From Acidimicrobiia bacterium (GTDB lineage: Bacteria; Actinomycetota; Acidimicrobiia; Spongiisociales; ZC4RG35): a stretch of 64,000 bases of DNA. Where the stretch lies: contig OZ244034.1 in NCBI GenBank assembly GCA_965215185.1, positions 3,057,535-3,121,534 of the forward strand. Direction: 5' to 3'. Positions 26,510-56,183 of this stretch are shown here, piece by piece. A program made the translations under genes and the position numbers. The notes under the pieces are model-generated. The model had not been told where the DNA came from, ran no database searches, and was given only the letters and a program-made list of their open reading frames with translations. The first letter of the stretch is position 1; every line of letters starts with the position of its first letter.

Positions 26510-26583
26510 GGGCCCGTAGCTCAAGTGGTCAGAGCAGCGGACTCATAATCCGTTGGTTGCAGGTTCGAGTCCTGCCGGGCCCA
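26510..26583 (+). tRNA. tRNA with CAT anticodon, most likely tRNA-Ile2 (lysidine); CCA not encoded
   Basis: Acceptor GGGCCCG/CGGGCCC, D arm TAGCTCAAGTGGTCAGAGC, anticodon arm GCGGA-CTCATAA-TCCGT, T arm GCAGG-TTCGAGT-CCTGC, discriminator A. Confidence 0.93.
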
Positions 26584-26797
26584 CAGCGGGGTCTTCGCGT
26601 GTTGGGCCTGTGTTAGTTCGCGGGTTAGGGGTGTTGGTGGGGGTTCTGGCCTGTTTTCGGGGTGTTCGGGTGTGTTTGGCCGGTGTTCGGGGGTGTGTGG
26701 CGGTGGTTGCGGGTGGTGTTGGCCGCGACGGCCGGTTCTGGACGCGTTTGGTTTGACGGGTGGGGTTCCCGTCAGCGGGGAGCGGTAGGGGGTTGGT

Positions 26798-28588
26798 TTA
26801 TGGGGGTGCTCGGGTGGGTGTGAGCTGGCCTGGGCGTTGGGTTGGTGCGTCTGGTGGGGTGGTGTCGGGGTTCGTCTGTTCGGCGTGGTCCGCTGTGGCA
26901 TGGTTGCGGTTCTTGGGGCGGCGGGTTCTTCCGGTTTGTTCGAGGTTGTGGATGACGGCTGCCATGAGCGCGGCGAGTGTGTGGGGAGCGAGACCGAACG
27001 CGCGGCAGGAGTCCTTCTCTAGGCTGCCGTCGTCTTTGATCATGCCGTTGACGCCTTCGACGGGGTTGCGTCCGGCGTAGTCGGTTGCCCACTTCGTGGT
27101 GCCGTAGGCGTTGCGCTGGTGGTTGTCGAGTTCGTCGACACCGAGGGTGATCATCCCGTCGCAGCAGGTTTCCCTGTCGGCGACGGCGGTGACGGGCAGG
27201 GGGGTGCGGCGTTTGCGGCGGTTGGCCCGTTCGGATTTGCGGGTTTTGGCTGTGCTTCTGACTTTGCCTGCGCATTGGGGGCAGATGATCTTCTTCCGCC
27301 CGTCGGGGAAGCGTCCGATGACTACCCATGCGTATTTGGCTCGTTCGTCGAACCATTCTTGGCGGTCGGTTCCGGTCAGCCCGTCGGATGGGCTGAGTAG
27401 GTGTTCTGGTGTCCATTCGACGAGAGGGGTGCCACAGTTCACATAGATGGGGGTGTTGTTTCTGCCTGCGGTGATGAGCTTGACGCCTCCCTGTTTGTCT
27501 TTGGCCTGGTTCATTACGATCTCCCAGCCGTGTTCATGTAGGGGCCGGACGAAGGTCGTTTTCTTGGCGGTGTAGTGCTGGTCGGCTTTCACGACTTCGA
27601 CGCGGGGTGCTAGCTGCTTCGCTTTGGTGGCTACCTGATATCCGATGGGTCCGACGTGTTGGTCGGCGGCTGCGAGGACCATCGAGACAATGTACGGGGA
27701 GACAGGCTCCTGCCGTTTGCCCCGGATGGAGGCGCGTACTGCAACGGCTAGATGAGCGAAGTAGCCGTTGAACCCCCCGGCTGGGTGTTTCGACGTTGCG
27801 CTGCGGCGGCCGGAGCCGTCTTCGACGTCCTTGGTGTGTTGGATCTTGCCGTTGAGCTTGAAGATCGTTTCAGGGGGTATGCGGCCGGCGTCGATCTCTG
27901 ACTGGCGTGTGAAGTCGGTGGTGCGTGCCCAGGTTTGGTAGTCGGTGCCGTCGAGGGCGATCTCGGAGACCTTGCTAGCGACCCATTTGGGAATCGACGG
28001 CCCGAGGAAGCGGTCGACCATCCATTGCAGATCGATGCGGGTCCCGTCGGCTGTTTCCGCTCCGTCGCGGAGGAAGCGTTCGATGCGGTGGGCCTGACGC
28101 CAGACGAGGTTGTAGGACACGAGCGAGTCGCCACTGTCGGGATCCAGCAGACCCCATTCCACCGCGACTGCAGCGTCGAGACCCGAGACAACCTCGCACA
28201 ACGTAGTCCGCTTGTAGCTGCCTTGGTGCCGAGCGGCGAGGAGCATGACCGTAAGGATCATCCGGGTAGAGAGCACGGGCTGTTCCCCCGGATGGGCACG
28301 CAGGACCTCGTCTATGCGCTTGCAGACTCCGGTGTTGCCCACGTACTGATACATGCGCCGGGCGCTGAAGGCGGCAGTGAGTATCGGTCCCCGGCGGCGG
28401 ATTCCCTCCTCGGCGGTATCCCCCCAGATGTGGTCACCCGACCGACCTGTTTCGTGGTCGTCGGCGCTGGGATGGTCTCTGGGTAGTCTCCTCTGAGCGT
28501 TCAGCTCGTACAGCCGGGCCGGTTCCGGGATGCCCTTCTTGGCGTACCGGTCGCGGCAGCGGCGGGCAGCCCGGGCCGTGCTGCTCAC
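26798..28588 (-). CDS. DDE transposase, IS4-superfamily-like (596 aa)
   Basis: IALDGTD (D1), GYFAHL, VKADQHY (D2), YAGRNPVEGVNGMIK (YREK-type E); CPQC...CC in the insertion domain. Confidence 0.85.
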   Translation of the reverse strand: MSSTARAARRCRDRYAKKGIPEPARLYELNAQRRLPRDHPSADDHETGRSGDHIWGDTAEEGIRRRGPILTAAFSARRMYQYVGNTGVCKRIDEVLRAHPGEQPVLSTRMILTVMLLAARHQGSYKRTTLCEVVSGLDAAVAVEWGLLDPDSGDSLVSYNLVWRQAHRIERFLRDGAETADGTRIDLQWMVDRFLGPSIPKWVASKVSEIALDGTDYQTWARTTDFTRQSEIDAGRIPPETIFKLNGKIQHTKDVEDGSGRRSATSKHPAGGFNGYFAHLAVAVRASIRGKRQEPVSPYIVSMVLAAADQHVGPIGYQVATKAKQLAPRVEVVKADQHYTAKKTTFVRPLHEHGWEIVMNQAKDKQGGVKLITAGRNNTPIYVNCGTPLVEWTPEHLLSPSDGLTGTDRQEWFDERAKYAWVVIGRFPDGRKKIICPQCAGKVRSTAKTRKSERANRRKRRTPLPVTAVADRETCCDGMITLGVDELDNHQRNAYGTTKWATDYAGRNPVEGVNGMIKDDGSLEKDSCRAFGLAPHTLAALMAAVIHNLEQTGRTRRPKNRNHATADHAEQTNPDTTPPDAPTQRPGQLTPTRAPP

Positions 28589-29538
28589 GCTCTCAACCCT
28601 TCGAGGGCGGCTTCTACCGGATCGAGGTCAGCGGCCGCAGCTGCCAGCAGCGCGGTGAGGGTGTCACCCGACAACGGACCGGCGATCCGGCGCAGCGCCG
28701 ACAGGGAAGTACCCGCGTGTAGGTGGGCGACCAGCCATGTGGAACGGGCACGCCGCACCGAAAGGGTACGGCCACTGATCCCAACCTGCCGACACAACAT
28801 GTACACAGCGGTGCGATGCGTCGCCGAAACGAACCGTTCGCCGTCGGCCAGCTCCACAGCTTCGCGTACGAGGGATGTGTAATCGTGGCGTATCGGCACC
28901 ATGCGCGGATGCGTGCCCCCGACCCGTATACCGAGCCGGTCGTTTCCGAGGTTGACCAGATCGCCGGTCTCGGCTGCTGCGACCGCCGGACTGAGCAGAC
29001 CCGCCCCGAGAGTGGCAGCGACCACCCAGCGACGGCCCGCGGGCTCCACCCGGGCCGGCAAACGTGCCGACAGCCGGAACACTGCCTCATCTCCCGGCGT
29101 ATACGGGCTCGACGGGGGTATGCGCCCGATCGGTTCCCCAACAGGGGCCTCGACCCAGCCGTCCGGGAACACAGCCCGCCCCACCCGGCGTAGAATCCAC
29201 CTGGTGTGGCGCCGCCACACCACACTCTTATGAGCGTTCGCTTCGAACGCCCAGTACTCCACGTTGGCGGGACACAACATCCGGACATCCACCGTGGCAG
29301 ACACCCCGAATGTCCAGGCAGCGAACTGCGACGTAACGCGAAGCATCTCGCGGACCATCGAAACGGTATCCGGGTGAGCAGCCGCAACCCAGCAACGTAC
29401 CGTCGGCCATACCAGCGTTTCGAGGTCTCCGCTGTCATCCGGATAGGTGTCCCAAACCGGTGGGCGCCACAACGACAGCCTCGCCAGCACGTCAGGAACC
29501 AGATCGGCAGATAGCGGAGCCCGGGTGAAGCAGGTCAC
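28585..29538 (-). CDS. Tyrosine-recombinase-fold protein with degenerate catalytic residues
   Basis: LGAGLLSPAV (box I), RMVPI, RRARSTWLVAHLHAG..LSALRRIAGP...DTL (box II); 4-bp overlap with the transposase. Confidence 0.7.
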   Translation of the reverse strand: MTCFTRAPLSADLVPDVLARLSLWRPPVWDTYPDDSGDLETLVWPTVRCWVAAAHPDTVSMVREMLRVTSQFAAWTFGVSATVDVRMLCPANVEYWAFEANAHKSVVWRRHTRWILRRVGRAVFPDGWVEAPVGEPIGRIPPSSPYTPGDEAVFRLSARLPARVEPAGRRWVVAATLGAGLLSPAVAAAETGDLVNLGNDRLGIRVGGTHPRMVPIRHDYTSLVREAVELADGERFVSATHRTAVYMLCRQVGISGRTLSVRRARSTWLVAHLHAGTSLSALRRIAGPLSGDTLTALLAAAAADLDPVEAALEGLRA

Positions 29539-29645
29539 AGCCGCGACCTTGACCGTGGGGAGGCGGTCTGCCGCAGCCAGGGCAGCCGCATCACGGCCTC
29601 GTGTTGTATACTATACTGCACAAGAAGCCCCCCAGTGGGTGTAAG

Positions 29646-29692
29646 GCCCGCGGTGCTCAGAGTTTTGTCAGAACCGTTTGAGCACCGTGGGC
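29646..29692. promoter_or_regulatory. 14-bp hairpin upstream of the recombinase-fold gene
   Basis: GCCCGCGGTGCTCA...TGAGCACCGTGGGC; AT-rich TATACTATACT nearby at about 29606-29616. Confidence 0.45.
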
Positions 29693-30018
29693 TCTTCTGT
29701 TTTCGGCGCCCAGTGTAGCCGATTGGCCGTCCGTGGGCAAAGGATCGGCACGCTCGAAACGGTCGATAACCTGGCGTTTAGGTACTCATGTGCTCGCCAA
29801 GAGAGACTCCGTGGCAGGGCACCCAGAACCCGCTTCGAACGATCGCTGATCAGGCGCGATGCACTTCGCCAAGAGACTTCTGTAGGACGGTATCAGGATC
29901 ACGATCCCACTACGGCGCCCTGTAAAAGCACGCAAGGCCCTTCGCATGGCAGATCACGAAATAGCAGCCGCTGAACGGATCGTGGACGACAACTTTGATG
30001 AGATGCTGGAAGGGTGGT

Positions 30019-30615
30019 ATGACCATTTTCAACGATGATCTGGCAGTCGCCCAGTTAGAAGTCACCGACAGCGCGATACGTGTCTGGCTGAACGACGGCA
30101 GAACGCTGACTGTTCCCGTTGGATGGTTCCCCGACCTAGAATCCACCGACCCCTTACAGTGGGGTCGGTGGATTCCGACAGGTTCGGGGGTTCGCTGGCC
30201 GGATCTCGGCGTGGAAACCAAGTTGGGGGATTTGCTGGCGGATAGCCCACTCCAGCATCCCGAAGGGATCGACCATGCCCGTCTAGCCAACGTGGACGTG
30301 ACCAACCGTAGTCTCTGCGTCTGGTTAAACGATGGCAGAACGCTGACTGTCCCGCTCTGGTGGTTTCCCCGCCTATGCGACGGCACACCCGAAGAACGGA
30401 ACGGGTGGCATATCAGAGACGGCGGAACCGATATCGTTTGGAAAGATCTGGACGAAGTGTATTACCTAGAAGATCTGTTAGCTGGGGGCTGGTCGCGGGA
30501 ATCAGCTCGGTCGCTGGGTCGGTGGCTGCTCGCCCGCAGAGAAGGCCGACCCGTCGCCGCCTACCAGATTTCCAAGTTCCATAAGAGTATGCCCCAGCCA
30601 GAACCGTTGACCTAA
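30019..30615 (+). CDS. Tandem DUF2442-domain protein (antitoxin-like)
   Basis: Two repeats of VWLNDGRTLTVP..WFP.L, followed by G..WPDL and I.WKDLDE. Confidence 0.85.
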   Translation: MTIFNDDLAVAQLEVTDSAIRVWLNDGRTLTVPVGWFPDLESTDPLQWGRWIPTGSGVRWPDLGVETKLGDLLADSPLQHPEGIDHARLANVDVTNRSLCVWLNDGRTLTVPLWWFPRLCDGTPEERNGWHIRDGGTDIVWKDLDEVYYLEDLLAGGWSRESARSLGRWLLARREGRPVAAYQISKFHKSMPQPEPLT

Positions 30616-30746
30616 CGGGAGAATACTCATCGCTACGCCGCCCACCACCATCAGGTGGACCGACTCTGGTGGGGCTGCGAACAGGTTGCGGCTAGGCGAC
30701 GTGAGAAGCCTGTCTAACTGCTTATCTAGTTCAGGGAACAGAACCC

Positions 30747-31229
30747 TTAGCAGGGTACGCTGATCGAAGGTTTGTGACAACGGGCCGCTCTTTTAAGAGT
30801 TCTGTGCTTCTCTGGCGGCGTGCGCTGCGCGGAGCCGGGCGAACACATCCTTTTTATATTCCAGCATGTCGGCTTCGTAGTAGACGCCGTGTTTAGCGCA
30901 GGCGGGCGGCGCAAGCGCCCGACGGGGATCCACGCGGGAATCACCGCCATCATCTCCCGTGCCCGAACAGCGGCAGTCGCGTAATCATGCTTTCCGATAG
31001 CGTTCTGCATCTCGGACATGGACCCGAAGTACGCGTCCGTCGCGGCTGTCGGGGGTTCCCTGAACGCACCGCCAGAACCGAGATCGGACTCCGACGCCGC
31101 CTGAAGGGTGGCCGCGTCCTTCTGTAGCAACGCGCCGAGCTTCGTGGAATCACTAGTACTCATACACGACGTCCAGTCGACGAGGCGGGTTCCAGCCATA
31201 TGACCCTCCCCGCTGGTATCTCCTTCCAC
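30747..31229 (-). CDS. Hypothetical protein or gene fragment
   Basis: 160-aa ORF; central part protein-like, C-terminus probably junk. Confidence 0.35.
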   Translation of the reverse strand: MEGDTSGEGHMAGTRLVDWTSCMSTSDSTKLGALLQKDAATLQAASESDLGSGGAFREPPTAATDAYFGSMSEMQNAIGKHDYATAAVRAREMMAVIPAWIPVGRLRRPPALNTASTTKPTCWNIKRMCSPGSAQRTPPEKHRTLKRAARCHKPSISVPC

Positions 31230-32171
31230 GGCCCGACGTCAGAAGCGCTTGCCTTCGTATCGCACGGCCCCCCACCTGGACAACATCGCCATCTGACCTC
31301 CGGCCACCTACTTCGATCACTTCTACCTCCCCTGCTCAGCGGCAGCCGTGACGCTTCCGCCGCCGCTCCATGCCCATCTGGCAATTGATACCAACTGGGC
31401 CGCTGGCGATCAGCAACTAACCGTACCGGGCTAGCCGCGGGATGCGGGCAGGGCTCCCGCCTAGGCCGCCGGGGGGTCAATGTCAGCTCCACGTATGAAG
31501 GTGCCTTACGCGGACCGGGACGGCGTACTGGTTCACGCGTCGCAGGTGGAGCGGGGTTGGGCGTGCGGATGCGTCTGTGTCGGGCACCAAGACCAGACCT
31601 CATTTCGCTCATCACGCTGGTGCGGGGGATTGTGACGGGAGTGTGGAACCCGTCTGGTAGCTAGAAGGGCGTTGGCCGCTGTCTCGGCGACTGAGAAGAG
31701 GAGACAGACTCCCGGGACCCCTACCATTACCCCTGGTCAGGGGTGGTCGCGAAGACCCCACAGAGGGGTCTTCGCGTGTTATGGGCTGTTGAGTTCGCGG
31801 GTTAGGTGGTTTGGTCGGGTTCTTGGGTGGTTTCGGGGGTCTTAGAGCCGGTTTCGGCGGTGTTCGTGGTGGTTGTGGCGCCGGTTATGGGTGCTGGTGG
31901 TTTTGGTGGCTGGTTCTGGACGCGTCTGGTTCGACGGGTGCGTTCCCGTCAAGGATGAGCGGTAGGGGGTTGGTTTATGGGGGTGCGCGGGTGGGTGTGG
32001 ACTGGCCTGGGCGTTGGGTTGGTGAGGCTGCGGTGGTGTCGGGGGTTGCCTGGTCGGCGCGGCCTGGGGTGCTTGGGTTGTCCTTCTCGGGGCTCCGGGT
32101 TCGTCGGGTTTGTTTGAGGTTGTGGATGACGGCGGCGGCGAGTGTGTGGCTGTTACCGCCCTAGAGTCGGG

Positions 32172-32462
32172 TCATCGGAGCATCCGGTCAACGTCCCTGC
32201 GAATCTCCGCTACGTAGGCATCGTCCGCGAGGCGGCTCTTGGCAATTTCCATTATCTGTATTGGCCTGCGGCGCGCGTTCTGCTGATGGCGCATCTTCTT
32301 ATCTCCGGTGATCACCAACGCGAACCCGTCATCGACGGCTTTGTCCAACATCGCCCCGTTGGACAAACCCTTCCAACCCATGTAGTCGACCGTATAGGTT
32401 TCGTAGTCAGGGAACAGGTGACGCAGGCGAATATCCAGGTCTTCGTCTATCAGGATCTTCAC
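32172..32462 (-). CDS. PIN-like toxin (DUF5615/VapC45-like)
   Basis: MKILIDEDL, MGWKGLSNG, LVITGDK..HQQN. Confidence 0.85.
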   Translation of the reverse strand: MKILIDEDLDIRLRHLFPDYETYTVDYMGWKGLSNGAMLDKAVDDGFALVITGDKKMRHQQNARRRPIQIMEIAKSRLADDAYVAEIRRDVDRMLR

Positions 32463-32467
32463 AGGGA

Positions 32468-33055
32468 TTATCCCAGCGGTCCCTGGTAGCCCTGATCCGC
32501 GGCGTGGCGCAACACCGCTTCGACGTGTTCGTAGTCCACGTCGTATGTGTCGCTGAACTCGCGGGCTGTTCTCCCTGCCTTCAGGAAGTCGAACAACGCT
32601 TCGACGGGGTGCCAGGTGCCCGCGAACGTGGGCTCCGGCGGGGGTGTGAACCCCACGAAGTGGACGCCTGGCACGTCGGTCACGCAGGTGAGTTCCACGA
32701 AGGGGCAGCCTGTCAGATCGACCGTGCCCACCGGCGGGTCGCTGGTCATGTAGTCGTAGACAGCCCTGACAGGTTCCGTATCTATCAGGTGAGCGTCAGG
32801 GAAGGTGTCCAGGGTGCCGCCGCCTGTGGTCAGCCAGTCGACCAGGGTGTCCGCTGGGATACGACGCCCGATAAAGGTTGCCTGACCGCCTTTCCGTCCG
32901 GGAACGTATTCGAGGGCCGCACAGCCCCGCCAGTCAACCATCCGGAGAACCATCGGGTCGTCGTGACGCTCCGCCCACGAACCAGCAGGAAGCTCAGACG
33001 GTGTGTCTTCGGCTGCTCCACTCGTGGTGCCCGAATGTAGCAATGTGTCGCTCAT
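32468..33055 (-). CDS. Tandem DUF433 antitoxin
   Basis: PGRKGGQATFIGRRIP and EPTFAGTWHPVEALFDFL.AG...EF. Confidence 0.82.
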   Translation of the reverse strand: MSDTLLHSGTTSGAAEDTPSELPAGSWAERHDDPMVLRMVDWRGCAALEYVPGRKGGQATFIGRRIPADTLVDWLTTGGGTLDTFPDAHLIDTEPVRAVYDYMTSDPPVGTVDLTGCPFVELTCVTDVPGVHFVGFTPPPEPTFAGTWHPVEALFDFLKAGRTAREFSDTYDVDYEHVEAVLRHAADQGYQGPLG

Positions 33056-33464
33056 TAGCGTGCCCGACCTACTGTGGTTATCCGATAGAGAGTGTCTAGG
33101 CACATTCTACCCGAGAGGACGCTGCTGTGTAGCGTTCCTGCCCGTTCGATTCTCAGTTGGCGAGAGGAGGTGACAGATTCCGGCTGAGGAGGAGACAGAC
33201 CCGCAGGACCCCTACCATCACCCCTGGTCAGGGGTGGTCGCGAAGACCCCACAGCGGGGTATTCGCGTGTTGGTGGGTGTTGGGTTCGCGGGTTAGGGGG
33301 CGAAGTCGGGGTTTTGGCTGGTTTTGGGGGTTTTGGGGGTCTGGTGGGGTGTGTGCGGTGCTGTGGGGTGCCGGTTATGGGTGTTGGTGGTGTTGGCGGC
33401 TGGTTTTGGACGCGTTTGGTTCGACGGGTGGGTTCCCGTCGGTGTGGGATGGGTCGGGGTTGGT

Positions 33465-35295
33465 TTATGGGGGTGCCCGGGTGGGTGTGGGGCTGGTGGG
33501 GTGTGGGGGTGGTGTGGCTGATGGGGTGGTGTTGGGGGTTGTCTGGTCGGGGCAGGGGGTGCTGCTGTTGTGGTTGTCCCGGTTGCGGGTTCGTCGGGTT
33601 TGTTCGAGGTTGTGGATGACTGCGGCCATGAGCGCGGCGAGTGTGTGGGCGGCGAGACCGAACGCGCGGCAGGATGCTTTGTCGAAGCTGCCGTCGTCTT
33701 TGATCATGGAGTTGACTCCTTCGACGGGGTTACGTCCGGCGTAGTCGGTGGCCCAGTTGGTGGTTCCGTAGGCGTTGCGTTGGTGGTTGTCGAGTTGTTC
33801 GACGCTGAGGGTGATCATGCCGTCGCAGCAGTACTCGGTGTCGGGGACGGCGACGGTGGGCAGGTCGGGGTTATTCGGTGTCGGGGACGGCGATGGTGGG
33901 CTGGTCGGGGTTGTGGGTGCGGTTGGGCCGGTTGGGGTTGCGGGTCTTGGCGGTGGTCATAACGCGGCCCGCGCATTGGGGGCAGATGATTTTCTTGGTT
34001 CCGTTGGGGAAGGATTGGACGACCTTCCATTGGTATTTGGCCCGTTCGTCGTACCAGTCTTGGAGGGCGGTGCCGGTTAGGTTGTCGGGTTGGGTGAGTA
34101 GATGTGGTGGTGTCCAGACGACGAGGGGGGTGCCGCAGTGCACGAGGATGGGGGTGTTGCGTGTGCCTGCGGTGATCAGCCTGACCCGTTTCTGTTCGTC
34201 CGACGATTGGTTCATGACGATTTCCCAGCCCTGTTCGCGCAGCGGCCGGACGAAGGTGTCTTTTTTGCGGGTGTAGTGCTGGTCGGCTTTGACGACTTTG
34301 AGTTTGGGTGCGACGCGTTTGGCTTGGGTGGCCACCTCGTGTCCGATGGGTCCGGCTTCTTCGTCGGCTGGTGTGAGGGTCATAGCGACAATGTGTGGGG
34401 CGACGGAATGGTGGCGTCTGCCTTTTCGGATGGAGCGAACAAGTACAGCTAGATGAGCGAAGTAGCCATTGAAGTGTCCTGCCGGACGTTTCGACGTTTC
34501 GCTGCGGAACCCTTGCCCGGCATCGACGTCGTCTGTGCGTTGTATCTTCCCGTTGGACTTGAGGGTGGTTGTTGGCGGAACACGTCCGGCGTCGACCTCG
34601 GCTTGGGGGGTGTAGTCGGTTGTGCGGGCCCACGTTTGGTAGTCGGTGGCGTCGATGGCGATCTCGGTGGCAGCGCGAGCTGACCATTTCGCAACGGAGG
34701 GTGCGAGGAAGCGGTCGACCATCCATTGCAGGTCGATGTCGACACCGCCGGGGGTGACCGCCCCTTTCGTGAGGAATGCTTCGATGCGTCTGGCCTGACG
34801 CCAAACCAGGTTGTAGGAAACAAACGAGTTGCCGGTGTCGGGATCCAGCAGGCCCCATTCGATAGATATCGCAGCGTCGAGGCCTGCGAGCACTTCACAA
34901 AACGCCGTCCGCGTGTATTTGCCCGTCATTTTGACGGTCAGGAGCATGACCGTGAGGATCATGCGGGTGGTAAGCACGGGTTGCGAACCCGGATGGGCAC
35001 GCAACACCTGATCTATCTGTCTGCAAACCCCGGAGAGGCCCACGTACTGGCATATTCGGCGGGCTTGGGCGGGAGTGGTGATTATCGGCTCCCGGCGGCG
35101 GACTCCCTCCTCGTCGGTGTCCCCCCAGACGTTGACGCCCGCCGAGTCGGTGTCGTCGTACCGATCCGCGCTGGAGTGGTCTTTGGGCAGTTTCCGCTCA
35201 CAGTTCAGCTCGTACAGGCGGGCCGGGTCCGCCATCCCCCGCGCGGCGTAACGTTCGCGGCGTCGGCGGGCAGCCCGGGGCTTGCTCACGATCAT
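33465..35295 (-). pseudogene. DDE transposase copy 2, frameshifted by a 40-bp internal tandem duplication
   Basis: Paralog of 26798-28588 (IAIDATD, VKADQHY, YAGRNPVE); TCGGTGTCGGGGACGGCGA occurs at 33835 and 33875, with a stop at 33871. Confidence 0.85.
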
Positions 35296-36930: not shown

Positions 36931-36959
36931 CTAGACGCGTTCGAGCGTCTAGCCTAAGG

Positions 36960-45410: not shown

Positions 45411-45420
45411 GAAGAGCATC

Positions 45421-46650: not shown

Positions 46651-46674
46651 CAACCATAGGAGCATCGATGAGCC

Positions 46675-47092: not shown

Positions 47093-47198
47093 AGACGCTC
47101 ACCCGTCTTCGGTCCTTCCGTGCCGCTGCGGGATGTGGAACCCCGGTCTCTAGATTTTGAGGGCCTGGGCAGCTATCAGCCATCGGGCACCGGCCCAC

Positions 47199-47750: not shown

Positions 47751-47835
47751 GGGTGGGATTCTAGCTCTGTGGGGAGACAAGACCGCATGGTCGGTGGCCT
47801 TACGAACTGGGAGCAGGCACCTGGGGTACGGGCGT

Positions 47836-47908
47836 ATTGGCGGCTGTCTCGGCGACTGAGAAGAGGTGACAGATTCCGGCTGAGGAGGAGACAGACTCGC
47901 GGGACCCT
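47836..47908. repeat. Partial right-end subterminal arm of the tandem element (no TIR)
   Basis: GAGAAGAGGTGACAGATTCCGGCTGAGGAGGAGACAGACTC...GGGACCC, as in units 1, 2, 5 and 8. Confidence 0.75.
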
Positions 47909-48080
47909 TGTTGAGTGGCTCTGATGTGTGAGTATCGGGGCTCGTTGCTCGCCGCGGCGGGCAGGGCTCCAACGCCCTCCTGGGGCCTATGCTCAAACCC
48001 TCAACCCGGACAACCACCCCTAGATTCTGCAGAGGGGGGACTCCAATAGGCGATAAGAAGGTTAGCGAGGCTATCTGCAA

Positions 48081-49133: not shown

Positions 49134-49189
49134 AGAGGGCACCGGGTGGTAGGGGTCCGGTGGGCTTGTGTCGTTTCCAGCGGATGAAG

Positions 49190-49375
49190 GCGGGTATCGC
49201 CGGTTGGTCGCCTGGATGGAATCTGCGGGCCGGCTGGTCCGGGTCGGGGTGGAAGGAACCGGTAGCTACGGCGCGGGGTTGGCCCGGCATCTTGCCGAGG
49301 CCAACTACGCCGCCAGAAGGGCGGGAAGACCGACAGCGTAGACGCCGAGGCGGCAGCTCGGGCGGCTGCCTCCCC
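49190..49375 (+). pseudogene. IS110 recombinase remnant
   Basis: Near-copy of 45590-45760 (VRVGVEGTGSYGAGLAR, RQKGGKTDSVDAEAAAR) with an internal deletion. Confidence 0.8.
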
Positions 49376-49961
49376 TGACTGAATCCAAAGTCGCTGGTCA
49401 GGGATGGTCGCGTGGGGTGGCGCGGCGGGACCGCTAGGTCTAGGTCTACGAAGGTCGGTGACGGGTTACCGTCGCGGGAGGGATCGCAAGCGACATGCAA
49501 CGCTTGTGGCTGGCAGTCAGATACAGCGTCCTGGGAGGAAGCTGTCGAGGCGCTTGAGGAGCACGGACCTTGTGTGGGTCAGAACAATCGTCCGTCAACT
49601 GACCGCGGGGCCATAACCCCCCGGCGATAGCGGTGCCCTATTCACTGGCCCGGCTAAGCCGTTCGATTCGCAGTCAGTGCGAGGAGGAGACAGATTCCGG
49701 CTGAGGAGGAGACAGACTCCCGGGACCCCTACCATCACCCCTGGTCAGGGGTGGTCGCGAAGACCCCACGCAGGGGTCTTCGCGTGTTGTGGGGTGCTGA
49801 GTTCGCGGGTTAGGGGTGTTGGCGGGGGTCCTGGCCTGTTTCAGGGGTGTTCGGGTGTGTTTGGCCGGGGCGTGGGAGAGTGTGAGTCAGAACGATAACC
49901 CCACCCCAGACGGCTAATGTGGGCCGCCCTGCTGCGGATGACCGGGAGAAGTGTGGGCGAT

Positions 49962-50294
49962 ATGGAACTCGCTATATGGATTACATCAGGAGCCACCACG
50001 CTCACAGCGGTCGGAGTGCTGTATCAGATGTGGTCCAACGCTGCACGGAGAGTAGTGCCTGGGTATCAGACGCTCCGTGCGTCATATCGTTCTGAAGAGA
50101 ACAACCATTGGGTACGTGGCAGACTGTCTGACGGCGAATTGGTCGCTGGGAAGGTAGTCGGGCTTACTCGTGTCACCTGTCGGATAGCCCATCCCACAGT
50201 CTCCACAAAGGAATACCTGATAACAGCTTTCGTCGACTGGGAAACGTTGATCCGGAGCTCAGGCGAGTTCCCGGACTGGGAACCCTGTGGGTAG
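49962..50294 (+). CDS. Hypothetical protein with N-terminal TM segment
   Basis: 110-aa ORF; no recognised motif. Confidence 0.45.
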   Translation: MELAIWITSGATTLTAVGVLYQMWSNAARRVVPGYQTLRASYRSEENNHWVRGRLSDGELVAGKVVGLTRVTCRIAHPTVSTKEYLITAFVDWETLIRSSGEFPDWEPCG

Positions 50295-50449
50295 ACAGCG
50301 ATCAACTAGTTTCTCGGAATCGGGAGAGACAAGGACTTCCCTGAGACCTTTCCGATCACTGAGTAACCCGCCGGGCCACTTTCCTGACCACCCACGGTCC
50401 CCAGGCTGTGTGATCCACGCGACAACTAAGAGCGTGCCGCTAGAGAGCC

Positions 50450-50629
50450 CTAGATGTTCAATTCCAGACCCAGGGTCTCCCAGAAGAAGGCTTTGATACC
50501 CCAGCGCAGGACGTTCGTTCCCCACTCGACAAGTAGCCCCAACATCGGCGTGGCGAGAACCAGAAGGCAAACGGCGACGCCCAGCATCCATTGACTAAGC
50601 GGGTGTCGGAGGACTCCAGGTACTCTCAT
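50450..50629 (-). CDS. Small hydrophobic protein (59 aa)
   Basis: Manual translation MRVPGVLRHPLSQWMLGVAVCLLVLATPMLGLLVEW... Confidence 0.3.
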   Translation of the reverse strand: MRVPGVLRHPLSQWMLGVAVCLLVLATPMLGLLVEWGTNVLRWGIKAFFWETLGLELNI

Positions 50630-50654
50630 AAGTGTAATTCTAGCCCGATCATCA

Positions 50655-50909
50655 TCACCTGACCAGGAGTGGTGGCGATGTGGGCGGGGACGGCGGCCAG
50701 CCCGTCGCAGGCCGATCTGTTACAAGCCTGGATACGACCGAACGGTCGACGATCTGCCGGAACCCCTGGTCCATGCGCTGCTCTAACCCGGCGACATCGC
50801 CCTTCAACCCGGCGATGTCCGCGCTGAGCCGGGATTCCATAGCGGTCATCGCCGACTCGGTCATCGACGCGTAGTCCCTAACATCCATAACCCGAACCAT
50901 ACCCCCCAC
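50655..50909 (-). CDS. Small coiled-coil hypothetical protein
   Basis: MESRLSADIAGLKGDVAGLEQRMD heptads. Confidence 0.4.
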   Translation of the reverse strand: MGGMVRVMDVRDYASMTESAMTAMESRLSADIAGLKGDVAGLEQRMDQGFRQIVDRSVVSRLVTDRPATGWPPSPPTSPPLLVR

Positions 50910-51164
50910 CCCCGACCAGGCACTTGGGGGTACGGGCGCATTGGCGGCTGAGAAGAGGTGACAGATGCCGGCTGAGGAGGTGACAGACTCGTGGGACCCC
51001 TACCATTACCCCTGGTCGGGGGTGGTCGCGAAGGTTGTCCCAGAGTCCACCGGCCTCAACCCCGGAGCATGTTCTTTCAGGTCCACATTTCCCCCTCGCT
51101 GTGATCGAGGTCTACCTGCCCATGTCAGCCCCTGGAAGCAAGGGAGACAGTTATCCTATGTCGC

Positions 51165-51749
51165 ATGAGCGGATCATGGATATACGACACCACGGTGGTG
51201 GGGGTGGAGCCTTTAGGCGAGTTGTGCCTACGGGTTCGCTTCCGGGACGGGACAGAGGGCCAAGTCGAGTCCCCGTATGGTAAGTGGGACTACCCAGGTG
51301 GATTCTCGGCTGTGCGGATTCATCAAGGCGGAGTGGCCTGGGGAAGTGGGCACGAACTTCTAGACATCTCGGGCACATGGTTGTACCAGCAGGTAACCGG
51401 ACTGTCCGACATGGCCCTCGCCCCAGAACAGCACGCCACACGGGTTGTCGATGTCCAGCCTCGTGACAAGTATTGCGTGTGGGTTCGCTTCCGGGACGGG
51501 ACAGAGGGCATTGCAGACCTGGGCGACCTAGCCGGTAAGGGTGTGTTCAAGCAGTGGGACCACCCTGATGTCTGGGGATCAGTGCGAATTGAGGACGACA
51601 CCCTGGCATGGGGTTCTAGCGACCCAGCAGAGAGGCTGGACATAAGTAGGGGGTCGCTGTATATCAGGGTGACGGGACTGACCTGGGACGACCTGTCATC
51701 CTCTTCTTTCGCCCTTAGCTCAGCCAAGCGATTGAGCGTCAGTGCCTGA
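51165..51749 (+). CDS. Tandem DUF2442-domain antitoxin
   Basis: Two repeats of VRFRDGTEG...VRI...AWG...LDIS...LY. Confidence 0.85.
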   Translation: MSGSWIYDTTVVGVEPLGELCLRVRFRDGTEGQVESPYGKWDYPGGFSAVRIHQGGVAWGSGHELLDISGTWLYQQVTGLSDMALAPEQHATRVVDVQPRDKYCVWVRFRDGTEGIADLGDLAGKGVFKQWDHPDVWGSVRIEDDTLAWGSSDPAERLDISRGSLYIRVTGLTWDDLSSSSFALSSAKRLSVSA

Positions 51750-52002
51750 ACTATGCCGCATGGGCAGTCTCGTTATGAATATGTGGTTCGATGAGCACCC
51801 TGGACCGCATTTCCATGCCCACTACGACGGGAAATCAATATGTATCTACATCCGGACCCTGGAAGTCGAGGATATGGGAGGGTTCCATCCGAAGAAGAAG
51901 CGCTTAGCATTGAAGTGGGCTAGACAACGTCGTTCTGAACTACTGATCGCTTGGGAGCGGGTCGAGCGGCACCAGCCGCCTGGGCGGATCCCACCCCTCT
52001 GA
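51742..52002 (+). CDS. DUF4160-domain toxin
   Basis: MPEL, EHPGPHFHAHY, WA...ELL.AWE...RIPPL. Confidence 0.88.
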   Translation: MPELCRMGSLVMNMWFDEHPGPHFHAHYDGKSICIYIRTLEVEDMGGFHPKKKRLALKWARQRRSELLIAWERVERHQPPGRIPPL

Positions 52003-52329
52003 TCTAGAGGCAACCGGGCGGGTAATCGGGACGAGATTGACGGGTTCAGCGCGGGACCTGGAGACCACGGTGACACTCTTTGGGCCATTTGATCCACCCT
52101 CCCCCCACGAACCGCGTTTGTCGAGGACTCCCTTGCCGCCGCCTCCCGCGGTGCCGCTTCGTAGGCCGAGGTGACGTAGTCCAGGTTCAGGAGGTGACGT
52201 GGTCCAGGAACCACCACCGAAGTGCCTGGTCAGGGGTGGTCGCGAAGACCCCACGCAGGGGTCTTCGCGTGTTGGGGGGTGATGGGTTCGCGGGTTAGGG
52301 GTGCTGGCGGGTCGCTAGCCTTCGTTTTC

Positions 52330-52551
52330 ATGCCCCGGTTCTTGGAGTCTGCGTTGAGGAATGTGTCTGAGAGAGACATCCAGCGTGCGCTCGACGCCCC
52401 GTTCTATGACGAGGGTATAACTACCCGACGGGGGAACCCTGGACTGCTCGTGCAGGGACCATCCGCGTCGTCGGGGCTGCCGATCGAAGTACTCGGAGAG
52501 ATTGACCCGGACACAGGCGAACTGGTCGTGTACCACGCCCACTGGATGTAA
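52330..52551 (+). CDS. Small RelE/BrnT-like putative toxin
   Basis: SA...VSERDIQRAL...LVQGP...LPIEV...VVYHA; homolog at 58095. Confidence 0.6.
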   Translation: MPRFLESALRNVSERDIQRALDAPFYDEGITTRRGNPGLLVQGPSASSGLPIEVLGEIDPDTGELVVYHAHWM

Positions 52552-52580
52552 GGGAATCGGCGGCTGGTCGGCAACCGGCG

Positions 52581-52847
52581 CTAGAGAGCTGCGAGCTTTA
52601 CCTTTCGGCCTGTAGGCACCCCGTTGGATATCGCCGCGATCCAGACATGATCGGGCAGGTCCGGGTCGGTACGGACGATGCGGCCTTCGTCCCATGCGTA
52701 ACCGTCCGGTAGCTGACTGATCAGGTAGTCAAGGCCCCTCGCGAAGATGTGGTCGTACGCGCCGGCAGCGGCTTCGTCGGCCTGGCGGAGCAGCCGCGCT
52801 TCGAACTCTTCGCGGGTCTCAGTGCGGGTATCTGATCGGGTTGCCAT
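52581..52847 (-). CDS. Hypothetical protein, putative antitoxin
   Basis: YLISQLPDGY...DPDLPDHV; homolog at 58382. Confidence 0.65.
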   Translation of the reverse strand: MATRSDTRTETREEFEARLLRQADEAAAGAYDHIFARGLDYLISQLPDGYAWDEGRIVRTDPDLPDHVWIAAISNGVPTGRKVKLAAL

Positions 52848-53442
52848 CGCTGCTCACCTTGCCACCGTCAGGGCCGGTTGTCAAGGACAGCCAGCGGTGA
52901 CTGGAGTTACGCAATCGCCGAGAGACTCCGTGGCAGGGCGCCCAGAACCCGCGCCGCTGGGACATCGCGGTGTGCGACACGTTGGGGTGGGACATCGACC
53001 AGGTCGCAGAACTCGGGGAGCTACTGGCGAAAGAACCGACCGTGCGGGGCGTCGCGTACGGTCAGTGGAGAACGTAGGCCCCCGAACCTGCGCCGAGCGC
53101 GTGGTTGACCGTCTGTGCTGGGGTCGGCTGCCGGGCACACTACAGTCGAACAAGTACGAGAGTGCCCCTCCTCAGTCACTGGGGTGAGGTGACGTCGTCT
53201 GGTGTCTAGAGGTGACGTCCTCCCCTGCCCCCCACCTAACTGCCTGGTCAGGGGTGGTCGCGAAGACCCCACGCAGGGGTCTTCGCGTGTTATGGGCTGT
53301 TGAGTTCGCGGGTTAGGTGGTTCGGTCGGGTTCTTGGGTGGTTTCAGGGGTGTTCGGGTGTGTTTGGCCGGGGCGTGGGGGTGTGTGGCTGTGGTTACGG
53401 GGGTATGGCGGCCGCGACGGTCGCTCGGGTATCATCACACCT

Positions 53443-53802
53443 ATGACTTCGCCCGCCCGTTCGGTGACCGTATCGCGGACCCGCTTGTTGAGCCGCCCGC
53501 CTGTGTCCATCCCCGACGACATGGAAGACCGGACGCTCCCGAAAGCGTCCGGGGTGGTGACCCTACCCGGCCATGTGGCCTGGTCAGCGCCCCGCACATT
53601 CGACATGGACAACCAGCGCCAGCTAATAAGCATGTACCAGACGGTGATGACCGAGGGGTTAGACGACGACGTCCGCTACTACATCGACATCGACTTGCTA
53701 GTCGAATTGTGGGACGATCTGTGGCTGTCCCCCTATGTCCGCGAAGCATGGTCAGCGTGGCTGCACGACAGGGGACTGATCGACGACCCCGCTGGATGCT
53801 GA
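53443..53802 (+). CDS. Putative antitoxin partner of the AbiEii-like toxin
   Basis: GVVTLPGHVAWS...FD...YQTVMTEG..DD...LW..LWL...VR.AW; overlaps the next gene. Confidence 0.7.
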   Translation: MTSPARSVTVSRTRLLSRPPVSIPDDMEDRTLPKASGVVTLPGHVAWSAPRTFDMDNQRQLISMYQTVMTEGLDDDVRYYIDIDLLVELWDDLWLSPYVREAWSAWLHDRGLIDDPAGC

Positions 53803-54278
53803 CCGAACTACAGGAACGGACCTGGCGGATACTCGCAGCGGTTCCCGAAGCAGACGGGTTCGCGTTAGCGGGAGGCTCAGCGCTGATCCTGACCGGTGTA
53901 GTCCAGCGCGGAAGCAACGACCTAGACGTGTTCGGGACGTACCCTGGGTCAGCCATCCCCTTCGCTGAAGCAGCCCAGCGAGGTCTGACCAGCGAAGGGC
54001 TGAACCCGACAGTGGAACGATGGGGAGAGGGGTTCGTCCGTATGCGAGTCACTGACGGTGCTGACACAACATGGGTGGATATCGCGATCGATGTCCGCCG
54101 GCACCCGACGGTTGCAGACCCGACCGGACCGGTCCTGAACATCCGAGAGTTAGCAGCCGACAAGATGCTGGCGTTGGGGTTGATGCGGATGCTGGTGTGG
54201 TGTTCGAGCGTGGTTGGCCGTTGTCTGTGGTGGGGTTGTCGGTTGCTCGGAGGGCGTGGACTCGTCGGGTGTGTTTGA
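53796..54278 (+). pseudogene. AbiEii/AbiGii nucleotidyltransferase toxin, 3'-truncated near 54175
   Basis: FALAGGSAL, RGSNDLDVF, ELAADKMLAL, then no RDxxD; GT-rich junk follows. Confidence 0.8.
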
Positions 54279-54308
54279 GGGAACGGTACAATCAGGGGAA
54301 ATGGACGG

Positions 54309-54803
54309 ATGGCTATGACAACAAAAGAAGCGCTTCCCCAGCGGCTGTACGGATACCTGGACAGCGCCGGCAACTATCAACCGACAGCCGTCCCCAAAAT
54401 GGAGCTGACCGCCGCTGACCTGCCGCCTCTGATGGTCGTACCCGACCTTCGCGGGTCGTACAGGTATCCGCTGTTGCAGTTCATCTTCGACTGGAACAGG
54501 TCAGTCGACAAGGCTCGGTTGATCGCTGAGCCGCCTGTCTACGACGGGGACGACCCTGTGCTGCTGCCGTCTATCGCAGTGGTCGTTCACGCGCTCGCCG
54601 ACCGGGCCGGGATCCCTATACCCGGCTGGGTGTTCGAGCATCGCGCTCCGACCGACATCGCGTTGTTCGTTCCTGACTACATGCCGAAATACGCGGAGTG
54701 GCTCAAACGCAGGTCACATCCGCTGTCCAAGTACCATCGGGTTCATATTCATCCCCGAATGCTCGACAAAGGAACCGACGACTGGTGGCTGCCCTGGGAC
54801 TGA
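54309..54803 (+). CDS. Hypothetical protein, putative antitoxin
   Basis: LIAEPP...IAVVVHALA...IPGW; lies 3 bp upstream of the NTase. Confidence 0.65.
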   Translation: MAMTTKEALPQRLYGYLDSAGNYQPTAVPKMELTAADLPPLMVVPDLRGSYRYPLLQFIFDWNRSVDKARLIAEPPVYDGDDPVLLPSIAVVVHALADRAGIPIPGWVFEHRAPTDIALFVPDYMPKYAEWLKRRSHPLSKYHRVHIHPRMLDKGTDDWWLPWD

Positions 54804-54806
54804 CAT

Positions 54807-55346
54807 ATGTCTGAACGGGGACTGACCAGAGAACAGCTAATCGGCCTGTTCGAAGAGTTGGACCTGTGGCTCGCTGCGAGACAAGCCGCCCACTACCAGA
54901 TTCTGGTAGTGGGCGGTGCTGCTATCGCCCTGCAGTGGAATCCCTCCCGGCTTACCAACGACGTGGACGCTGTCTCGGAAGGTTTCACCGACGAATTACG
55001 GGAAGGGATCGCAGCAGTCGCCGCGAAACGGGGCCATGTGCGGGCTGATTGGCTCAACGACGCTTCCAAGATGTCGACTATCTCCCCCCAGGCCGACGCT
55101 TCCCCCACCCCCATATACGAAGGGACCAACCTGACCATCTACGGAGCAGGCGCCCGGTACGTGATGGCCATGAAGGCGATCTCCGGCCGTCCCGTAGACC
55201 TAGCGGACCTTCCGGTTCTGGTTAGGGCAGCCGACTTCGATACGCTCGACGAAGCGTTGGAGTGGATAGACCGCGCCTACCCACTCCGTTCGACACCTGT
55301 ATCAGCCCGATACGCTCTCGAACAGATATGGGCTGACCTGCACTGA
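54807..55346 (+). CDS. DUF6036-like nucleotidyltransferase
   Basis: VVGGAAIAL, RLTNDVDA, DWLND, AMKAISGRPVDLAD. Confidence 0.85.
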   Translation: MSERGLTREQLIGLFEELDLWLAARQAAHYQILVVGGAAIALQWNPSRLTNDVDAVSEGFTDELREGIAAVAAKRGHVRADWLNDASKMSTISPQADASPTPIYEGTNLTIYGAGARYVMAMKAISGRPVDLADLPVLVRAADFDTLDEALEWIDRAYPLRSTPVSARYALEQIWADLH

Positions 55347-56183
55347 TAATCCCGCAAACCACCACCCGTAGCCCGCCGCCACCCCGTCAGGTCGCAGCAC
55401 AGGAGCCCTTTCATCCCAGACCCATCATCGCGGAGCGGCTCCTCTCCCTCCGTCAAACCCCCACCAAATGAATTATCGGGGGTTGGAAATGGCCGAGTGG
55501 TTTATCGGCGAGATGAAGTCGATCTAGCCGACCCCGGACCCTTTCGACCATCGGCGCGGGATAGCGGTACGGTGTTCTACGCAGCGCAGGCGGCGAGCCC
55601 TACACGCACCATGTCCGGCCGGCGCATCATCTGGTCAGCAGCTACGACGCCATAGCCGTTGAATGGTTGAACGTGGCGGGGATGCTCCGCACCAATATGT
55701 TTTCGCACAGGATGGCTTCGCAGCGTTGGGCCGCCTATGACCACATATTGGAACGCGGGGAGTGGCCGAGTCGGCGAACGAACGGTGAGCAGGGGCTCGG
55801 GATACGGGCGAAACACCGATTCGCAGCGACTGGGAAGAGGAGACAGATTCCGGCTGAGGAGGAGACAGGCTCCTCGGACCCCTACCATTACCCCTGGTCA
55901 GGGGTGGTCGCGAAGACCCCACAGCCATCTCAGCCAGCCGCCGTGCCGTGCGCCGCCGCCGTCGGCGCCGCCCACATCACCACACCACAGCAACGCCGCC
56001 ACACATGTCACACGACACGACGACGGTGGAGTCTTCCGCGTCTTCGGCCTCGGGCCGGGCCAACACGGATCGCGTAGGACCGTACTCAACCAACCGCTGG
56101 GGGCAGCGACTCCGCTAGGATAGTTACGTAGCGTTGCGGATATACTCGATGTATTACGGGGTGCGTATTACCATCCGCACGTA

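Follow-up and report, generated by a model that had tools for sequence, protein, structure and literature searches.

The window described here is a 64,000-nucleotide stretch of contig OZ244034.1 (positions 3,057,535 to 3,121,534 of the forward strand) from the genome assembly GCA_965215185.1 of an Acidimicrobiia bacterium. Behind an intact tRNA-Met gene it harbors an array of eight units, stacked head-to-tail in one orientation over 29 kb between that gene and a half-site at the far end. We consider it likely that this array is a pile-up of a two-gene, cut-and-paste-type family of DDE transposons that homes to the 3' ends of tRNA and transfer-messenger RNA (tmRNA) genes. One of the two genes encodes the transposase; the other encodes a protein with the predicted fold of a tyrosine recombinase and no nucleophile tyrosine, referred to below as dYR, for dead tyrosine recombinase. 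The window's own genome is labelled G000, and other genomes and loci carry labels such as G174, G122 or L088.

Neighboring units meet at the motif CGCGAAGACCCC-N5-GGGGTCTTCGCG, in which a right tip and a left tip are separated by five nucleotides (N5). A motif search of the window allowing at most two mismatches finds it seven times, at junctions 1/2 (31748..31776, N5 ACAGA), 2/3 (33239..33267, ACAGC), 3/4 (37208..37236, ACGGC), 4/5 (41084..41112, ACAGC), 5/6 (49756..49784, ACGCA), 6/7 (52241..52269, ACGCA) and 7/8 (53259..53287, ACGCA), against none expected from 100 dinucleotide-preserving shuffles. Six matches are exact, and the one at 33239 has a single mismatch, located in its left tip (GGGGTATTCGCG). 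Half-sites with no more than one mismatch occur 16 times in the window versus 0.74 expected; 14 are inside the junctions, and the remaining two stand alone, a left tip at 26588 and a right tip at 55909. The tRNA-Met(CAT) gene that serves as target occupies 26510..26583 on the plus strand and is left undisrupted, as the first-pass annotation of this DNA had stated (ARAGORN; Rfam RF00005, 74.1 bits, model positions 1-71 of 71). Given this end at 26583, the first N5 begins at the discriminator A: the left ACAGC (26583..26587, +), read as a 5-bp target duplication, consists of that A and the next 4 nt, and is found again as the right ACAGC (55921..55925, +), directly followed by the flank CATCTCAGCC.

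The units measure 5172, 1486, 3964, 3871, 8667, 2480, 1013 and 2645 bp. These lengths, their common orientation, the seven junctions with their N5 values, and the two half-sites, one behind the tRNA and one ahead of ACAGC at the far end, had all been reported in the first-pass annotation and were recovered by the motif search and from the junction coordinates. Its count of eight stacked units holds for those that can be delimited now, but at least ten were once stacked, since truncated right ends inside unit 5 (~47850-47907) and unit 6 (50970-51033) represent two decayed junctions, lost through deletions. When aligned with each other, the left ends of the eight units are alike over ~42 nt, and their tip motif CTTCGCGTGTT is repeated as GTTCGCGGGTT at positions 29-42, a second copy of a TTCGCG-GTT motif. 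The right ends are alike over ~65 nt of a distinct sequence. The ends are thus asymmetric, like those of transposons with a defined left and right, and have a terminal inverted repeat of 12 perfect base pairs, GGGGTCTTCGCG. No unit ends were found elsewhere in the 3.12-Mb genome, save two 16-mers with 1 mismatch.

Unit 1 (26588..31759, +), delimited by its ends and by alignments, is an autonomous element with the left tip GGGGTCTTCGCG, the right end ...GGTCGCGAAGACCCC and ~2.2 kb of cargo, and is 99.9% identical to a unit in G174. On the minus strand it encodes a DDE transposase of 596 aa (P0001, 26798..28588) and the dYR partner of 317 aa (P0002, 28585..29538), whose stop overlaps the transposase start by 4 nt. 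The cargo includes a DUF2442 protein (29995..30615, +; Pfam E 2.3e-23). An alignment of 16 members of the transposase family shows D213, D336 and E511 to be invariant, with a CxxC...CC insertion between the second D and the E. The signature Y504-x2-R507-x3-E511-x6-K518 (YREK) has its Y, R and E in 16 of 16 sequences and its K at +7 in 14. The only domain match of the transposase is DDE_Tnp_1_6, at 23.4 bits against a cut-off of 25.1, and an NCBIfam scan of the unit 1 protein returned nothing at E <= 0.01. Over the 16 members the best NCBIfam model was IS1182 (E 1.4e-6, in 7 of 16), and IS5_1 gave 13.8 bits against a cut-off of 275. None of the curated Pfam or NCBIfam models for insertion sequences (IS) of the IS4, IS5, IS1182 and IS1634 groups reaches its cut-off.

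This transposase shares features with several known families. Tn3-family elements also make a 5-bp duplication, and their ends begin with GGGG as do those of the array, but with 596 aa, no DDE_Tnp_Tn3 match and a perfect inverted repeat of 12 bp the family is not of Tn3 type, where ~1000 aa and ~38 bp are expected. The long spacer between the second D and the E is reminiscent of IS1634, the 5-bp repeats of ISH3 and IS1634, and the weak profile likeness of IS1182 and IS5. The DDE triad and the complete Y-x2-R-x3-E-x6-K agree with the definition of IS4 (PMC2266710), whereas the duplication of 5 bp and the termini GGGGTCTTCGCG do not agree with the ~7-13 bp and the CA/CT termini of that family. 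In the 'emerging families' IS1634, ISH3 and IS701 the duplication would fit, but YREK is complete here. De Palmenaer 2008 (PMC2266710) ties the full YREK to duplications of 7-13 bp and those of 4-6 bp to families with an incomplete motif; the combination of a full YREK with a 5-bp duplication fits none of the groups of that classification as given there. IS4-related families further differ from the array in that their ends begin with CA, CT or CRGT instead of GGGG, and the array family has a second, recombinase-like core gene, site and orientation specificity, and cargo.

The 317-residue P0002 has no match in Pfam or NCBIfam. Its AlphaFold2 (AF2) model (pLDDT 79.8) has a two-domain structure, for which the best Foldseek matches in the Protein Data Bank (PDB) are XerA, Cre, Tn1549 Int and XerH (E 6e-6 to 1e-3). 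In all, 43 matches were obtained at E <= 0.001, covering 270-325 columns with E-values down to 5.9e-6 and TM-scores of only 0.35-0.46. As modelled, P0002 has the two-domain fold of tyrosine recombinases. The catalytic Tyr and the R-K-H-R-H/W set of an active tyrosine recombinase are not complete in this family. All 21 close sequences lack a conserved Tyr in the C-terminal 88 residues, where 7 of them have no Tyr whatsoever, and among 70 full-length relatives plus P0002 the column expected to hold the Tyr is occupied by L (56), V (5), I (5) and M (2). Among these 71 sequences, 70 retain Arg II and 13 have Arg I. We named the protein for the missing nucleophile and the retained Arg II. Pfam PF00589 matches neither P0002 nor its 20 aligned relatives, nothing else of relevance was found by Pfam in these 21 members, and a sequence-profile search of the PDB with dYR gave no hit at E <= 10, which leaves the fold comparison as the one informative search. 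The family is large: a profile search of 1.84 billion cluster representatives, with clusters formed at 50% identity, gave 2625 clusters at E <= 0.001, 1819 at E <= 1e-10 and 265 at E <= 1e-30. In their source records these relatives are named 'hypothetical', and once 'Tyr recombinase domain-containing'. Some long members are tandem or fused, and P0164 also contains a Pfam Phage_integrase domain. Outside the window, a 143-aa open reading frame (ORF) at G000:C1:1983185-1983559, in a compositionally native region, matches positions 52-176 of the dYR profile (E 3e-35) and may be the remnant of an older such element in the nominal host.

Relatives of the transposase are rare, with 26 matches in a word-indexed search, and are present in 17 of 401 genomes of the order, from two families. 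Thirty transposase loci correspond to 22 sites once the tRNA-Met arrays of G000 and G174 (4 loci) are set aside. At 15 of these, the 3' end of a tRNA or tmRNA gene identified by ARAGORN faces the C-terminus of the transposase within a few hundred bases (Val twice, Leu three times, Lys four times, Glu, Ser, Met, and tmRNA three times), and another site has a 3' fragment of tRNA-Met. Two sites fall outside the evaluable count, one being at a contig start and one inside an array, which gives 16 of 20. The near-full-length transposase genes adjoin a tRNA or tmRNA in ten of ten evaluable cases. Homologs with as little as ~25% identity are found beside tRNA and tmRNA 3' ends in a single orientation, which supports the earlier proposal of a DDE family specific for the site and orientation of tRNA 3' ends. 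Of 14 loci tested, 9 have the dYR gene upstream of the transposase gene.

The position of insertion was examined at 27 tRNA-Met sites from 24 of 29 genomes of the sister family; 22 of the 27 sites are empty. At four occupied sites the tip is exactly 5 bases past the acceptor stem, with N5 ACGCA, ACCAC, ACAGC and ACACT; one further site has its tip 11 bases past the stem, 6 nt beyond the usual offset. Since the four N5 differ at one offset, the sequence 3' of the tRNA varies and the position relative to the tRNA is constant. A 14-mer subterminal motif retrieved 41 left ends, of which 14 follow a right end, 4 have no tip and 23 are the first of their array. These 23 include 8 at tRNA genes, 2 at tRNA 3' fragments and 4 at a T-loop-like box, exactly 26 nt from the tip in three cases. 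In the window, the T-arm box GGTTCGA of tRNA-Met likewise begins 26 nt ahead of the element tip. This box is found at -26 at 7 of 10 sites with a tRNA or tRNA fragment, and also at 3 sites that are not tRNA genes.

The gene pair extends well beyond this order. In a phylum-wide sample of 400 other genomes of Actinomycetota, the transposase profile matched 1 and the dYR profile 10. Six of the ten dYR-positive loci were opened, a set to which G583, G456, G660 and G675 (where the match is at a contig start) do not belong. A dYR-like ORF is followed by an ORF matching the transposase profile in all six, and three of the six have a tRNA-Leu or tmRNA facing the pair, one GGGGTGTTCG tip being 3 bases past the tmRNA. 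A survey of plasmids gave one distant match with the transposase query and none with dYR. Plasmid pSCL3 of Streptomyces clavuligerus (L140, NZ_CP086232.1:255367-258095) encodes a pair of 322 and 579 aa, in this order and annotated as hypothetical; the first matches the dYR family at 99.3% in hhalign and the second is 24% identical to the transposase, with no tRNA within 3.7 kb. The order of the two genes, overlapping or adjacent, is kept from Acidimicrobiia to Streptomyces, and the tRNA association of the pair is old.

The 5-mers that flank the arrays are derived from the target, and mostly match on both sides. They are GCTCC at a tRNA-Arg array, ACGAA at all 4 positions of a tRNA-Leu array and ACGGT three times at tRNA-Val, arrays that obey the 5-base spacing as well. 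In a solo element away from tRNA genes both flanks read AAGGT, as those of the window array read ACAGC. Other pairs match nearly, namely ACCAC/ACAAC and GCCTT/GCTTT (4 of 5 positions each) and CTGTG with a 1-nt shift.

Several observations weigh against repeated, tRNA-directed transposition. Two flank pairs do not match, ACGCA/ACAAC at the tRNA-Met of G122 and GTAAC/AACTA at G122:2020392. The exact empty site with the right flank of the window is absent from the 27 tRNA-Met sites of the 29 sister-family genomes, this flank being found only in G174. An empty site with a single ACAGC, which the first-pass annotation had called for, was thus not found, and the 22 empty tRNA-Met sites of other loci were compared instead. 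Four of the 22 transposase sites, all with transposase fragments, have no tRNA within 1.5 kb, and neither have three of the six distant loci a tRNA nearby, nor the Streptomyces plasmid. Of the 23 array-first left ends, 9 from the sister family lack both a tRNA and a T-arm-like box, and at 3 of 12 tRNA-adjacent sites of the close subfamily the gap is 6-11 nt and not 5. The dYR gene went undetected beside 2 of 11 near-full-length transposases (L007, L017). Moreover, hhalign between dYR and the two XerC/D-like proteins of G000 is non-significant (probability 0.08%), so that the residue equivalences proposed for dYR, assigned by inspection, rest on the fold match and the absent conserved Tyr. Targeting of tRNA genes is therefore a strong preference and not an absolute rule. 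The expectation that transposase homologs would lie at tRNA 3' ends is borne out for most of them.

The internal N5 of the window also belong on this side of the balance, since they differ (ACAGA, ACGGC and three times ACGCA), which is unexpected for repeated insertion at a single site. Block movement, excision scars or recombination must therefore be added. In our preferred account, composites of several units carry their old junctions along, excision scars and recombination between arrays being the alternatives. The ACGCA that occurs three times inside the window is also the N5 adjoining the tRNA-Met of G122.

Other arrays show further irregularities of this kind. Locus L098 (G174:C1:687300-692800) is an array of the family at a tRNA-free site with N5 ACTTA, ACCAG and ACAAC, all starting with AC as tRNA-derived 5-mers do, which fits blocks that were made at tRNA genes and moved later. 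At L088 (G178:C2 ~4374700) a variant right end is followed by three tandem ACAGC, ACACGCACAAT and the next left tip, and at L057 (G194:C110 ~45370) ACAACAACGCA is found between tRNA-Met and the tip, which are 11 nt apart in all. The extra 5-mers at L057 and L088 could be scars of excised units, that is, leftover duplications. Finally, the arrays L102 (G072:C1 ~900080) and L123 (G122:C1 ~945140), which adjoin tRNA-Met and tRNA-Arg, each show ATATA after a right end and, directly behind it, GGGTATA.TGCCCTAGAATAGCCAC.AGTTTGGCGGGTTC, which may be the end of another type of unit that shares these arrays.

The left end, on the side of the transposase C-terminus, faces the tRNA, and insertion in the close subfamily is usually 5 bp past the acceptor stem. 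In the mechanism that we propose, dYR, as a domesticated integrase, would bind the T-arm/acceptor DNA of the tRNA gene and position the transposase there, and the transposase would perform strand transfer with a 5-bp stagger; dYR would in this respect be comparable to TnsD and TnsF of Tn7-like elements. A new unit would enter between the tRNA and the prior unit, the array would grow on its tRNA-proximal side, and older units would decay distally. Any left end together with a downstream right end could be moved, so that cargo-only units and multi-unit blocks would be mobilised in trans, which would account for the foreign N5s. Guidance by RNA was also considered and was rejected: not a single 9-mer is common to tRNA-Met and unit 1, where 4.6 would be expected, and the only Rfam family found between 25000 and 57000 is tRNA.

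A different enzyme could in principle be responsible. If units were moved by recombination of the tyrosine-recombinase type, the right tip, N5 and left tip would constitute an attP-like core, with 12-bp arms and a 5-bp overlap, through which an excised circle would recombine with an attB at the acceptor end of the tRNA gene, in the manner of integron cassettes, dif modules or tycheposons. The 5-mer would then be this overlap and no target duplication. The 3' ends of tRNA and tmRNA genes are classic integrase targets, the junction is shaped like a recombinase core site and one of the element's core genes encodes a recombinase fold; exchange between non-identical overlaps would moreover leave one 5-mer from the element and one from the target, and so explain both ACGCA/ACAAC at the tRNA-Met of G122 and the foreign N5s of the window. 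We nevertheless hold this mechanism to be very unlikely. Neither the 21 close sequences nor the 70 further ones have a Tyr at or near the nucleophile position, and Arg I is mostly missing. The element does have an intact, conserved DDE transposase, and its ends bear subterminal repeats typical of transposase-type elements. N5 tracks the target (AAGGT, GCTCC, ACGAA, ACGGT) and is the same on both flanks, and the dissimilarity of these targets rules out a requirement for identical overlaps. In addition, the distal end has no second copy of a tRNA 3' segment, and the usual overlap of recombinases is 6-8 bp, longer than the 5 bp seen here.

With a DDE transposase retained as the enzyme, the role of dYR can still be read in two ways. 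The transposase itself might read the T-arm box, with dYR as an end-binding factor, a regulator or a relic of lost resolution as in the Tn3 family. GTTCG is common to the repeats CTTCGCGTGTT and GTTCGCGGGTT and the T-loop box GGTTCGA, a recombinase-fold protein could bind the palindromic junction as a dimer, and the two near-full-length transposases without a detectable dYR gene are located at tRNA-Lys and tmRNA. Set against this are the persistence of the gene pair from Acidimicrobiia to Streptomyces, where it travels with the tRNA/tmRNA association, and the end repeats of distant subfamilies (e.g. TGTTGGCGATTTA), which are unlike the T-loop box although the elements are still found at tRNA genes. 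Recombinase-fold proteins ordinarily recognise the 3' ends of tRNA genes. There is also a precedent in TnsF, whose inactivated tyrosine-recombinase domain directs the Tn7-like Tn6022 to comM (PMC10293859). A transposase that finds the tRNA without dYR thus appears unlikely to us, and from this analysis dYR is probably the target selector.

More tentatively, the family may represent an old superfamily of minimal, two-protein elements of Actinomycetota in which a dead integrase reads the T-arm/acceptor region that all tRNA and tmRNA genes have in common and guides an IS4-like DDE enzyme to a point exactly 5 bases past the gene, in one direction only, producing an integron-like, polarised store of cassettes that move from genome to genome singly or in blocks; this wider reading is possible, though somewhat less likely than not. 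Within it, elements and their enzyme-less derivatives would pile up because the target site is regenerated on the tRNA side.

Among known systems, Tn7-like elements come closest, sharing with the array a DDE enzyme with a 5-bp duplication and insertion in a fixed orientation downstream of a conserved gene, which is left unbroken. Tandem accretion at the attachment site is known from Tn7-like islands. Their selectors and relatives include TnsD at glmS, the tRNA-homing types of CRISPR-associated transposons (CAST) and the TnsF of Tn6022, which like dYR is an inactivated protein of the tyrosine-recombinase type and serves there as target selector (PMC10293859). The differences are that the transposase of the array is a single IS4/IS1182-like protein of ~596 aa, that the array family targets many tRNA and tmRNA genes where Tn7-like elements use one protein-coding gene, and that its ends have one tip and one subterminal repeat in place of arrays of TnsB sites. 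Pfam scans of 50 array ORFs, some small ORFs being outside the scan, found no domain of TnsA, TnsB, TnsC or TniQ type. As for TnsF, dYR lacks its zinc-finger N-terminus and is unrelated to it by the tests run.

Integrase islands, tycheposons and integrons resemble the array in landing at tRNA or tmRNA genes, in their tandem cargo, much of it toxin-antitoxin-like, in having units without enzymes, and in a recombinase-fold gene. In contrast to integrase islands and integrons, dYR has no nucleophile Tyr, the tRNA is not repeated at the far end, and the array has inverted-repeat ends and a DDE enzyme. The array is unlike an integron with its IntI, attI and promoterless attC cassettes: neither IntI nor an attC-like structure was seen, its junctions are transposon inverted repeats, and the Pfam-scanned array ORFs include no active integrase. 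Casposons use the Cas1 casposase and Dada an unrelated eukaryotic DDE enzyme, both with other duplication lengths and no recombinase-like partner. The likeness of casposons and the Dada superfamily is that they are DNA transposons inserting at or in small-RNA genes.

NCBI annotation lists both core proteins as hypothetical. A literature search, which had most subscription journals and ISfinder outside its scope, found no account of a DDE transposon that has a recombinase-like partner and resides at tRNA genes. The set of components is unprecedented, while targeted DDE transposition with a protein selector is already known. To our knowledge, such transposition with a dedicated selector is known essentially from Tn7-like elements, with three or more core proteins. 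Here, two proteins appear to suffice for insertion that is specific for site and orientation, at a target present in every cell and harmless to occupy. If confirmed, the family would provide another example, independent of the first, in which a disarmed integrase has been turned to target selection, would unite in one element the two major classes of enzymes that move DNA, and would make an integron-like cassette array the product of a different chemistry. Because the dYR family is large (2625 clusters) and wholly unannotated, many tRNA-adjacent genomic islands of Actinomycetota may be misread. A compact, sequence-defined system for safe-harbour insertion may also be of practical interest.

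Comparison with G174 bears on how the array grew. At the same locus, the flanks of the two genomes have identities of ~98.8% on the upstream side and ~99.6% on the downstream side, and units 1-2 of 99.8-99.9%. The neighborhoods of units 1/2 and 7/8 are shared, the middle units differ, and in G174 two further units separate unit 1 from the tRNA. This fits polarised growth at the tRNA side, which the first-pass annotation had suggested on seeing both core genes complete only in the tRNA-proximal unit. That observation needs amending, as the transposase of unit 5 is intact as well; its partner gene is broken, as had been implied.

The terminal 107 kb of the contig (G000:C1:3014321-3121534), of which the window forms the last 64 kb, has a GC content of 0.648 versus 0.582-0.626 in 70-kb windows and a tetranucleotide distance of 0.22 versus a maximum of 0.149 elsewhere. 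It is ~98.8% identical to G174:C1:1604336-1697880, from a genome of another family, and holds second copies, 74-75% identical, of genes found elsewhere in G000. The likeness to G174 breaks off precisely where the contig ends, and the inner boundary has an IS. A large, recent transfer and a chimeric join are the two explanations for this segment; whichever holds, the array belongs by descent to the lineage of G174. The end motif of the close subfamily is present in 8 of 29 genomes of the G174 family versus 1 of 130 others of the window's own family, and the named records with the junction motif are two metagenome-assembled genomes, labelled Acidimicrobiia and Candidatus Spongiisociaceae.

Raw data were consulted as well. 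In six runs from three studies, 78-86% of sampled words of 26400-36399 are present, and in Logan contigs from four runs all 30 bins of 26300-46299 are covered at 95% or better. No junction-spanning piece occurs among the Logan contigs listed for four runs. The joints that they do contain, such as the one from 31759 to 37224 present in three runs, extend to either side by no more than 30 letters, within the shared ends; they are thus indistinguishable from those of other arrays or organisms and are silent on assembly, circles and excision.

It is extremely unlikely that the array is an assembly artefact, that is, repeats collapsed or mis-joined in a metagenome-assembled genome. The location of the window in a compositional outlier whose likeness to a genome of another family ends at the contig end would suit such an error, as would the lack of a junction bridged by the Logan contigs listed. 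However, junctions of this type recur in four or more other genomes that were assembled independently (G174, G122, G072, G178) and in the two named records, and G174 keeps the neighborhoods of units 1/2 and 7/8 with other units differing. This recurrence of the architecture with different unit content makes an artefact unlikely, the eight internally distinct units are no collapsed repeat, and a chimeric join 70 kb away would alter the host assignment and not the array.

The remaining units are delimited by their ends, all on the plus strand. Unit 2 (31765..33250) is non-autonomous. On the minus strand it has a transposase C-terminal remnant of the last 60 codons (31978-32148), recognised by comparison of units, and a Pfam-identified pair of DUF5615 (32172-32462) and DUF433 (32468-33103) genes; a unit of G194 matches its cargo at 89% identity. 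Homology shows unit 3 (33256..37219) to be an autonomous element that has decayed; it belongs to a subtype with 64% identity and has a transposase split over two frames (33522-35295, -) and a dYR fragment covering aa 132-317 (35295-35855, -). A full-length relative is found at a tRNA-Arg in G174. Unit 4 (37225..41095) has cargo only, an SH3_3 protein (38555-39394, -) and an NTase_sub_bind-like protein (39876-40340, -), both assigned by Pfam.

Unit 5 (41101..49767) is a composite. Homology identifies its intact transposase of 594 aa (41312-43096, -), 82% identical to that of unit 1, and a dYR gene reduced to aa 88-317 (43096-43785, -), cut by a nested ISL3-type IS. Only the partner gene is thus damaged, broken by the nested ISL3 and IS110 insertions. 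The unit also carries an RNA-ligase cargo gene (48081-49133, +; Pfam). Unit 6 (49773..52252), likewise composite, encodes a DUF2442 protein (51165-51749, +; Pfam). Unit 7 (52258..53270) is a non-autonomous element of 1 kb with no Pfam match, and has relatives of 77-82% identity at six or more G122 loci and in G178. Unit 8 (53276..55920) has cargo only, with Pfam matches to an AbiEii-like nucleotidyltransferase (NTase; 53334-54278, +) and a DUF6036 NTase (54807-55346, +); an element like it, 95% identical over 1524 nt, is present at a non-tRNA site in G122.

Units 4, 6, 7 and 8 consist only of ends and cargo, and the non-autonomous cargo units appear to be mobilised in trans, in keeping with the occurrence of sequences like units 7 and 8 and the unit 2 cargo at other loci and in other genomes. 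The cargo is mostly made of small genes of toxin-antitoxin-like or nucleotidyltransferase type. The label 'defence island' was tried and is unsupported beyond these Pfam toxin-antitoxin-like domains, PADLOC having returned only two weak AbiEii matches, both to one protein, among ten cargo proteins. The ISL3-type IS nested in unit 5 (43849-45229) has two ORFs (43849-44727 and 44483-45229) and is apparently frameshifted, and the IS110-type IS lies at 45421-46650. Many copies of these nested IS (43786-46678 of the window), 70-88% identical, are found elsewhere in G000 and G174.

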